From: a virus | Lineage: Duplodnaviria; Heunggongvirae; Uroviricota; Caudoviricetes | Length of the DNA stretch: 9,206 nucleotides | Direction: 5' to 3' (one strand) | Virus record (IMG/VR): IMGVR_UViG_2534681940_000023 | Span: 1-9,206 of that record | Shown: positions 4,639 through 5,031 of the stretch, piece after piece | Numbering within the stretch: the stretch's first letter is position 1 | How the letters are laid out: the number at the start of each line of letters is the position of its first letter | Translations under genes and position numbers: made by a program | The notes under the pieces: model-generated | Told to the model about the DNA's origin: nothing | The model's input: only the letters and a program-made list of their open reading frames with translations | The model's database searches: none

Positions 4639-5031
4639 TCAGCGATTAGACGCTTCTTTTCTACCCATATTAACTTTGAACAAGAGCTCCATACGACGAG
4701 TCCAGACACCACGTTCTTTGAGTTGTGCTCTGGCTTCTTCGCGCTCAGATACGGAAGTTCTGACAATACGATTTCCAGCCAGATTGCGGCGATATTCTCC
4801 AAACGCGACTGACTGAAGGTATGCAGCGGAGCTTTTGTACTGATAGATGGCTCTTCGAAGGCTGTTTTTATATTCCTTAGGTATATGTCCGAGATCGGCA
4901 AAAAGCTCATGAACGATATCGTGAACAAGCGGAACAACTTTGTATGGAATAACAAAGAAGCTTTCTGGATAGCGTTCAGCCAATACTTTAATGATTTCTT
5001 TATTTGCAAGATGCCTTGCTTTTCTTCCCAT
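4639..5031 (-). CDS. ProQ/FinO-family RNA-binding protein (stand-alone FinO domain, 130 aa)
   Basis: '[17 protein letters not shown]...PL...[32 protein letters not shown]...EEARAQLKE' aligns by eye with the ProQ N-terminal FinO domain ('SKEVIAFLAERFPHCFS...[31 protein letters not shown]...EHARKQLEE'). RBS GGAGAA lies 6 nt upstream. It is in a different frame from the overlapping stop-free frame, whose translation here is low-complexity. Confidence 0.75.

Follow-up and report, generated by a model that had tools for sequence, protein, structure and literature searches.

The DNA analysed here, hereafter the window, is a stretch of 9,206 nt from a tailed-phage record (IMG/VR IMGVR_UViG_2534681940_000023, positions 1 to 9,206) and covers the immunity region and early genes of a lambdoid Escherichia coli phage of the mEp460 kind. 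Its minus strand carries a gene for a 130-amino-acid (aa) FinO-like protein, two structured RNA genes of the IsrK and C4 types, and rha, which encodes a Rha-family regulator or antirepressor. The interval from the FinO-like gene to rha is occupied by these two RNA genes and is not mere spacer.

The FinO-like gene and the RNA module downstream

The features of the locus, in the order in which the minus strand is read, are as follows.

5094-4627 (-): 468-nt cassette made up of a new DUF4222 stop codon, a 60-nt spacer, the FinO-like gene and 12 nt, from alignments to mEp460 and to an E. coli 357900 prophage
5043-5040 (-): Shine-Dalgarno (SD) sequence GGAG, 8 nt before the FinO-like ATG, read from the sequence
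4639-5031 (-): FinO-like coding sequence (CDS), 130 aa, ATG start, stop TGA at 4641-4639, from the list of open reading frames (ORFs)
4596-4624 (-): putative promoter of the IsrK-like RNA, TTGATT (4624-4619), 17-nt spacer, TACACT (4601-4596), 8/12 consensus
4602-4513 (-): outer limits of the IsrK/SeqA-like leader, including a weak c4-a1b1 match (RF03163, 4602-4550, 20 bits)
4589-4513 (-): IsrK-like leader RNA, full-length match to Rfam RF01394 isrK, 54.1 bits (gathering score, GA, 50)
4534-4513 (-): intrinsic terminator ACCGCG-CUCA-UGCGGU plus CUUUUC at the end of the IsrK-like element, from a terminator scan
4488-4401 (-): C4-type antisense RNA, full-length match to Rfam RF01695, 80.1 bits (GA 45), E=6e-15
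4396-4356 (-): second set of C4 target sites, from a complementarity search
3783-4346 (-): rha, Rha-family regulator/antirepressor, 187 aa, ATG at 4346 (start assigned from SD and ATG); Pfam Phage_pRha 2.5e-26, TIGR02681 91 bits

The FinO-like gene is real and its assignment to the FinO/ProQ domain is secure. The protein matches Pfam PF04352 (ProQ/FinO) with E=1e-13 and 51.7 bits, well above the gathering cutoff of 27 bits, over profile positions 4-99 of 109. The identity proposed in a preliminary description, which had been made from the sequence alone, is thereby confirmed, and so is its view of a FinO-domain-only protein. A phmmer search of PDB sequences returned the N-terminal domain of E. 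coli ProQ (5nb9, E=9e-6), Lpp1663 and RocC, and the three sequence blocks quoted in that description, including ARAQLKE/ARKQLEE, can be seen in the alignment to 5nb9. The fold was likewise borne out by structure prediction: an AlphaFold2 model built from 19 homologues (pLDDT 92.2, pTM 0.83) consists of helices and of strands at residues 80-82 and 88-91, and in a Foldseek search of the PDB the first 26 ranks are taken by FinO-domain structures (RocC, both free and RNA-bound, Lpp1663, NMB1681 and FinO), the first match after them having E=2.9. Both checks by which the preliminary description could have been refuted, on the profile match and on the fold, have therefore come out in its favour. RocC is the best structural match, with target-normalised TM-scores of 0.69-0.80 for its chains.

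Residues R58, Y70 and R80 of ProQ, which were needed for every RNA tested (PMC10578477), correspond to R59, Y71 and R81 of the FinO-like protein in the 5nb9 alignment and to R75, Y87 and R97 of RocC; ProQ K54 corresponds to K55. The importance of Tyr and Arg residues of the concave face for RNA binding is documented in two studies (PMC10578477, PMC9674577). The product is predicted to be a stand-alone RNA-binding protein of the FinO/ProQ type. The NCBIfam equivalog model for ProQ (NF003434) gives 41.7 bits against a cutoff of 127 and aligns over positions 6-105 of 205 only, and the model for FinO (NF010317) gives 18.4 bits against 136, in a prophage and not in a plasmid tra region. Judged by these scores, the protein belongs to the ProQ/FinO family and is an orthologue of neither ProQ nor FinO. 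When the FinO frame is compared with its allele in E. coli GB089 (97.5% identical), seven codon differences are synonymous and three non-synonymous, and every allele has an uninterrupted ORF preceded by a good SD.

Both RNAs of the module, which the preliminary description does not mention, score above the gathering thresholds of their Rfam families (RF01695 and RF01394, clan CL00128), and the structure of C4, a closing stem of 16-17 bp around two hairpins followed by a CCACC 3' tail, is backed by compensatory double changes in 14 of 26 pairs over seven loci. The IsrK-like RNA is predicted to start at about 4589, from the putative promoter at 4596-4624. An unpaired segment of C4, ACGCCAA (4429-4423), is complementary to UUGGCGU both upstream (4564-4558) and downstream (4396-4390), and a C4 loop, CUAUGUUGA (4444-4436), is complementary to UCAAUAUAGA upstream (4549-4540) and to UCAACAUAG downstream (4366-4358; with GG, to 4356). 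This last site overlaps the rha SD, AGGGG (4359-4355), just ahead of the ATG at 4346; the two upstream sites lie within the IsrK-like leader. Unconstrained folding of duplexes between C4 and its flanks unfolds C4 and is uninformative, and it was replaced by the search for complementary stretches.

In mEp460 the two C4 segments read UUUCCAC and CUUUGGUGA instead, and each of the four target sites is changed to match: the pair ACGCCAA/UUGGCGU of the window stands against UUUCCAC/GUGGAAA in mEp460 (L007 4730-4817 and flanks). The same two-site pattern of co-variation recurs in loci L008, L012, L018 and L020. Since C4 segments and target sites change together, the IsrK/C4 module appears to be a working switch that carries specificity, with rha as the predicted controlled gene. 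The module is of the same type as immI (c4-icd-ant) of P1 and P7 and the CI/seqA-seqC system of P4. It shares with these, and with isrK-orf45-anrP of Gifsy-1 (PMC4825925), duplicated target sites, an internal terminator and a downstream gene of the antirepressor type. The short IsrK RNA of Gifsy-1 turns on translation of AnrP, an antirepressor, and favours induction (PMC4825925). The differences between the C4 RNAs of the window and mEp460 have the look of a P1/P7-style switch of RNA-immunity specificity on a conserved scaffold. In another IMG/VR prophage (L006), isrK and C4 occur twice in tandem after the FinO-like gene (isrK 6443-6519, C4 6544-6631, isrK 6818-6893 and C4 6910-7000).

The cassette, the subfamily and the protein-RNA linkage

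The FinO-like gene appears, from comparison with related phages, to have arrived as a discrete 468-nt cassette directly before the promoter of the antisense-RNA switch. The cassette, whose boundaries are good to about +/-3 nt, has a G+C content (GC) of 0.41 against 0.49 for the window. It is missing from mEp460 and from the E. coli 357900 prophage, where DUF4222 directly abuts the downstream region; the RNA module of the latter, an empty-site prophage, is about 99% identical to that of the window. Homology with phages lacking the cassette resumes at ACATTGATTC (4627-4618), which contains the -35-like TTGATT, that is, exactly at the putative -35 of the IsrK-like RNA.

Among 5426 complete E. coli genomes, 14 carry the cassette, at 97.5% identity and in a different lambdoid background; three IMG/VR prophage contigs have it at 98-100% identity. 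RefSeq names the E. coli copies 'ProQ/FINO family protein' (WP_038813125.1), and in 10 of the 14 records (H4 and H6-H14; e.g. NZ_AP042695.1 2319144-2319536) the ORF is intact and has no CDS annotation, a stretch of 450 nt being left empty between DUF4222 and 'Rha'. Neither megablast nor tblastn with the gene and protein found anything in 50,697 GenBank phage records. A tblastn search of plasmids gave one weak match only, to a host-type proQ, so that an origin from plasmid FinO or FopA was rejected. The RNA module, for its part, is present in 1357 of the 5426 genomes. With the module common and the protein rare, it is the protein that seems to be an accessory dependent on the RNA module, and not the reverse.

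The protein belongs to a small subfamily. An exhaustive HMMER search of 1.84 billion representative sequences returned no more than 57 proteins (E<=1e-3). Some 20 of them have 124-131 aa and align with it end to end; a word-indexed protein search recovered the near-identical cluster only, and its profile version eight proteins. All 19 aligned members (the window protein and 18 others) match PF04352. Within these, P34, Y71 and A100 are invariant and R101, G86 and Y65 nearly so, and a C-terminal helix (residues 110-128) carries an 'RG.W(T/S)' motif with a conserved Trp, W110.

Genomic context was retrieved for 12 lineages, of which 10 were informative and two lay on contigs too short to judge. 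In eight of the 10 (protein identity 30-51%), a terminator hairpin lies downstream of the gene on the same strand, and after it comes an RNA of the C4 or sRNA-Xcc1 type (sRNA, small RNA). These lineages, with protein identity in brackets, are the following.

Window type: lambdoid; isrK, C4; next gene Rha
P0002 (51%): P2-like prophage beside cpxRA; a1b1, isrK, C4; next gene PF25738 'Derepression'
P0005 (41%): adjoins AAA_15 and GmrSD_N genes; isrK (41 bits), C4 cut by the contig end
P0009 (38%): metagenome contig; sRNA-Xcc1; next gene unassigned
P0012 (37%): KilA-N and helix-turn-helix (HTH) genes upstream; a1b1, isrK, then the contig end
P0008 (36%): AlpA nearby; C4; next gene Bro-N
P0010 (34%): P2-like; C4, 547 nt downstream; next gene a 101-aa ORF
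P0011 (32%): metagenome contig; sRNA-Xcc1; next gene AntA

The architecture of sRNA-Xcc1 is that of C4, with a closing stem around two hairpins and then a CACC tail. A hairpin with a U run lies between the protein gene and the C4-type RNA in all eight positive lineages, and wherever the sequence was available the two-site complementarity was found as well, its final site falling on the SD of the gene that follows. The elements concerned are of different types (lambdoid, P2-like and AlpA-linked), and the RNA-positive lineages are spread over the whole neighbour-joining tree of the subfamily. Searches for P0002 in viral contigs and alignment-based searches for the locus found nothing.

Some further observations concern members of the subfamily. 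A Xenorhabdus copy looks as if it adjoins a toxin-antitoxin-like pair of ORFs, as read from ORF translations only. In L015 (679-4589) the FinO-like gene stands divergently beside three genes with AAA_15/AAA_21 and GmrSD_N domains, a block that has the look of an anti-phage defence cluster. An int-alpA RNA (L022, 1680-1747, 58.6 bits) and an AlpA gene (L019, 152-430) lie near other members. We take these to be markers associated with P4-like satellites or phage-inducible chromosomal islands (PICIs), and the FinO-C4 unit may travel on phage satellites too.

A candidate chaperone of the IsrK/C4 switch

We favour the view that the FinO-like protein is a dedicated chaperone, in the style of FinO and FinP, of the adjacent IsrK/C4 switch, and we put the probability of this at roughly 55%. 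FinO domains recognise the base of a terminal hairpin together with a pyrimidine tail ending in a 3'-OH, by means of a pocket of conserved Tyr and Arg residues (PMC9674577), and host ProQ has been reported to associate with IsrK in Salmonella (PMC5391140). The neighbouring RNAs offer features of this kind, namely a terminator hairpin with a U-tail in one, and in the other a long closing stem and, after it, a short tail rich in pyrimidines; it is these features, together with the association of ProQ with IsrK, that favour a cognate-chaperone mechanism. The protein would attach to the IsrK-like RNA at the terminator hairpin and 3' tail, to C4 at the closing stem and 3' tail, or to the two RNAs alike, and the targets that had been suggested at the outset, 'regulatory hairpins or terminator 3' ends', may in this way be made specific. 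The IsrK-like terminator would also be the 3' end of the mRNA of the FinO-like gene itself. Bound RNA would be shielded from decay and RNA-RNA pairing sped up, and the level of Rha translation would thereby be set once the early operon fires. The effect would be pro-lytic, with Rha up, if an IsrK-like decoy or activator were stabilised, and pro-lysogenic, with Rha down, if C4 were. The view starts from the domain identity and fold, the RNA genes, their complementarity to the ribosome-binding site (RBS) of rha and the conserved linkage of gene and RNA; from these we infer RNA binding, the choice of RNA partner and the sign of the effect on Rha.

Several points weigh against this view. A nearly invariant Gly in the beta-turn of FinO domains contacts the 3'-terminal ribose (PMC9674577). 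This residue, G52 of RocC and G37 of ProQ, is Asp38 in the FinO-like protein, and only 6 of the 19 subfamily members have Gly at that position. With Asp in place of Gly, 3'-end recognition may depart from the canonical mode of FinO domains. The promoter scan of the window did not support a dedicated promoter for the gene. The RNA module is present without the protein in about 99% of its E. coli occurrences and in mEp460; since it works without the protein, the basic switch would not require the latter and may already be served by host ProQ. No C4-type RNA was found in the context of P0003 (metagenome contig L013, Rfam) or near the Xenorhabdus copy (L024), and the linkage could in part reflect one inherited ancestral block or a favoured insertion site.

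The gene might instead be a general RNA-binding accessory (a moron), which acts broadly on host or phage transcripts and mimics or competes with host ProQ at the 3' ends of many terminators, its place beside C4 being historical. Minimal FinO-domain proteins can bind RNA globally, as Neisseria ProQ does (PMC7272453), the nearest sequence match of solved structure is itself the global binder ProQ, the cassette is a discrete insertion of lower GC, and in two lineages the gene is kept with no C4 RNA beside it. We nevertheless regard this explanation as unlikely, if deserving of consideration: immediate linkage on the same strand is kept in 8 of 10 lineages at 30-50% identity, across element types and with varied cargo genes, which is hard to explain without functional coupling, and in several lineages gene and module, with the gene first, seem to form an autonomous unit that diverges from its neighbours. 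That it is a decaying or altered passenger, in which the fold is kept and canonical binding of RNA 3' ends is lost or the gene is not expressed, seems improbable. The Asp in the beta-turn fits such a fate, as do V33, V36 and Y63 in place of ProQ R32, K35 and R62 (5nb9 alignment), its rarity in E. coli and the missing annotation of most copies. It is countered by the purifying selection seen against GB089, the intact ORF and SD of all alleles, the confident model, the retained R/Y/R triad, and the persistence of the subfamily over deep divergence with P34, Y71, A100, R101 and W110 conserved.

The frame at +1 to the FinO gene has also to be considered. It is free of stops from the CII stop (ATGA) at 5444 to 3783 (-), over 553 codons, in frame with rha and through DUF4222, the FinO gene and both RNA genes, and a 553-aa ORF that overlaps the FinO gene and continues into rha could in principle be the functional product in place of the FinO frame. 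The chance of an open +1 frame across the FinO gene of the window is 0.009 when the gene is recoded with the codon usage of the window and 0.087 when its own codons are permuted; the frame is open in L008 and L022 as well (0.027 and 0.029 by permutation of own codons), other lineages having 1-10 stops, and long 'Rha' or 'ash' ORFs are annotated there in mEp460 and RefSeq. Its amino acids, however, are not conserved: differences from GB089 are one synonymous and eight non-synonymous, and identity to mEp460 is 36%, where DUF4222 is far better conserved, so that the frame is not taken for a protein. No family matches it over the FinO gene, the RefSeq 'Rha' start is an ATC codon, and it is the FinO frame that has a significant profile match and the 57 homologues. 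On the substitution pattern and the absent homology, the 553-aa ORF was rejected as a real gene, and we hold it to be very improbable; even its translation would not abolish the FinO gene. It is conceivable that selection merely keeps the frame open, for example for the passage of ribosomes through the RNA module.

A dedicated chaperone of the IsrK/C4 switch would have a close likeness in the FinO/FinP/traJ system, where a FinO-domain protein and a structured antisense RNA are also found on one mobile element and the RBS of a regulator is occluded. There, FinO stabilises FinP and promotes duplex formation (PMC9977716). The locus of the window likewise has a structured RNA beside the protein gene, complementary to the initiation region of rha, and the linkage of the two is conserved in divergent relatives (8/10). 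The differences are that the phage protein is domain-only, without the N-terminal extension of FinO of F-like plasmids; that FinP is cis-antisense, whereas the RNA here is of the trans-acting C4 type, in tandem on the same strand and with two sets of target sites; and that the element is a phage and the target an antirepressor. The specialised FinO-domain chaperones FopA (with Inc and repZ) and PcnR of IncI plasmids and RocC (with RocR) of Legionella are also comparable; they serve one or a few cognate sRNAs, of which they recognise the terminator hairpin and 3' tail (PMC7491321, PMC8053102, PMC9674577). Identity to these is about 22-25%, and G52 of RocC is Asp in the phage protein. The protein shares its architecture with the minimal ProQ proteins of Neisseria (NMB1681) and Legionella (Lpp1663), which have about 120-130 aa and add short extensions to the FinO domain. 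These are chromosomal and NMB1681 at least is a global RNA binder, whereas the present subfamily is phage-borne and has the C-terminal Trp helix. Compared with ProQ of E. coli and Salmonella, the phage protein has neither the linker nor the Tudor-like C-terminal domain.

It had been stated beforehand that FinO domains are known from plasmids and chromosomes. This holds as far as it goes, and phage-borne ones are also on record, in a review (PMC9977716), in a phage genome paper (PMC8541194) and in about ten BFVD entries with a FinO fold; a paper on PICI satellites mentions them too (PMC13612085). Those of Sinorhizobium phage phiM9, Aeromonas phage 4_4572, Salmonella phage 7-11 and Shewanella phage KASIA (p031) are uncharacterised, come from isolated phage genomes (KASIA being described as virulent), have 11-30% identity and no reported RNA partner. 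Given these records and the RefSeq name, presence in a prophage is not new by itself. The mere presence of the gene is of modest interest, and it is the conserved coupling to an IsrK/C4 antirepressor switch that is the interesting part.

C4/CI/IsrK switches control antirepressors, and hence lysogeny, in P1, P4 and Gifsy-1. To our knowledge, descriptions of these switches treat them as made of RNA alone and dependent on host factors, and the FinO-domain proteins studied to date are all chromosomal or plasmid-borne, none encoded by a phage having a known RNA partner or role. The literature found on the P1/P7, P4 and Gifsy-1 switches names no element-encoded RNA-binding protein. More generally, in a literature search that left most subscription-journal papers outside its reach, no link between a FinO/ProQ protein and C4/CI-type RNAs and no element-encoded protein partner for these switches was found; as far as can be told, the conserved protein-RNA linkage is a new variation on the FinOP theme. 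More tentatively, and at slightly less than an even chance, the phage-specific subfamily as a whole may have co-evolved with these RNAs as their dedicated chaperone, an unrecognised protein component of C4/CI/IsrK switches; protein and RNA would then form a FinOP-like pair that controls whether the antirepressor is translated and, in this way, whether prophages are induced or cross-induced. On this reading the pocket, altered from Gly to Asp, might be adapted to processed, CCA-like ends of C4 and not to the U-tails of terminators. If the proposed role is correct, the type of switch found in about one quarter of E. coli genomes would have a protein layer as well, through a conserved FinO-domain partner encoded on the element itself, and phages would be seen to tune induction post-transcriptionally. 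There would also be a compact natural system for the study of FinO-domain specificity, consisting of one small protein (130 aa), two short RNAs (about 80 nt) and a reporter gene, for which cassette-bearing and cassette-free alleles both exist in nature.

The early operon and overlapping annotations

The remaining genes of the region are the following.

6361-6987 (+): cI-like repressor (HTH and S24 peptidase)
6263-6063 (-): cro-like gene
6139-5441 (-): CII-like gene
5444-5256 (-): 63-aa ORF
5265-5092 (-): DUF4222 gene, upstream neighbour of the FinO-like gene (Pfam PF13973, 1.6e-17)
3786-3362 (-): two small ORFs
3381-2395 (-): O-like replication gene
2300-1647 (-): Dam methylase
1650-1324 (-): LexA-like gene
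1327-938 (-): RusA
1020-109 (-): antirepressor-like gene

The cro-like and CII-like genes diverge from the cI-like repressor gene, and a pR-like site, TTGACC-17-TAACAT, lies ahead of cro. The FinO-like gene is downstream of both in the rightward operon, in agreement with the early-operon placement given in the preliminary description. That description had also called the operon translationally coupled, which does not hold for this gene, with a gap of 60 nt upstream and 292 nt downstream, and had set it between the CII-like gene and rha; the order is right, but the gene is not adjacent to the CII-like gene, because the 63-aa ORF and DUF4222 intervene. A weak sigma-70-like site, TTGAAC-16-TATCAT (5062-5089, -; 9/12 consensus), was considered as the gene's own promoter and rejected. 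Its spacing is not conserved, the GB089 allele having a 3-nt insertion in the spacer, and sigma-70-like sites are no commoner in the sequence than in shuffles. An antisense hairpin, GCAAGATGCCTTGC followed by TTTTCTTCCC, lies over the first FinO-like codons (5006-5019, +); it has a 5-bp stem, no promoter was found for it, and it was taken as chance. To the left of the cI-like gene, at 7599-7801 (+), there is a full-length but sub-threshold Rfam match to the STnc100 sRNA (36.3 bits, GA 47, E=4e-5).

Protein annotations overlap the RNA genes in several records. The Pfam 'Phage_ASH' match covers residues 282-376 of the long ORF, which are positions 4601-4317, over the isrK and C4 genes, and the RefSeq 'Rha family' or 'ash family' CDS of GB089 starts at its ATC codon in a stretch that overlaps the FinO stop region. 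The Rha domain proper begins after the ATG at 4346. Calls of this kind are found in the window (4317-4646, -), in L001 (4145-5008) and in L023 (1267-1845). Part of what is called 'ash family' or long 'Rha' is probably conserved RNA read as protein, and the ORFs so annotated over these RNA genes are probably wrong. Within C4 itself, an AUG at 4484-4482 (positions 5-7 of C4) starts an ORF that is continuous with the rha frame and would give a 233-aa Rha isoform; L020 (5947) is alike in this respect, and the arrangement resembles that of orf45, whose translation is coupled to anrP in Gifsy-1.

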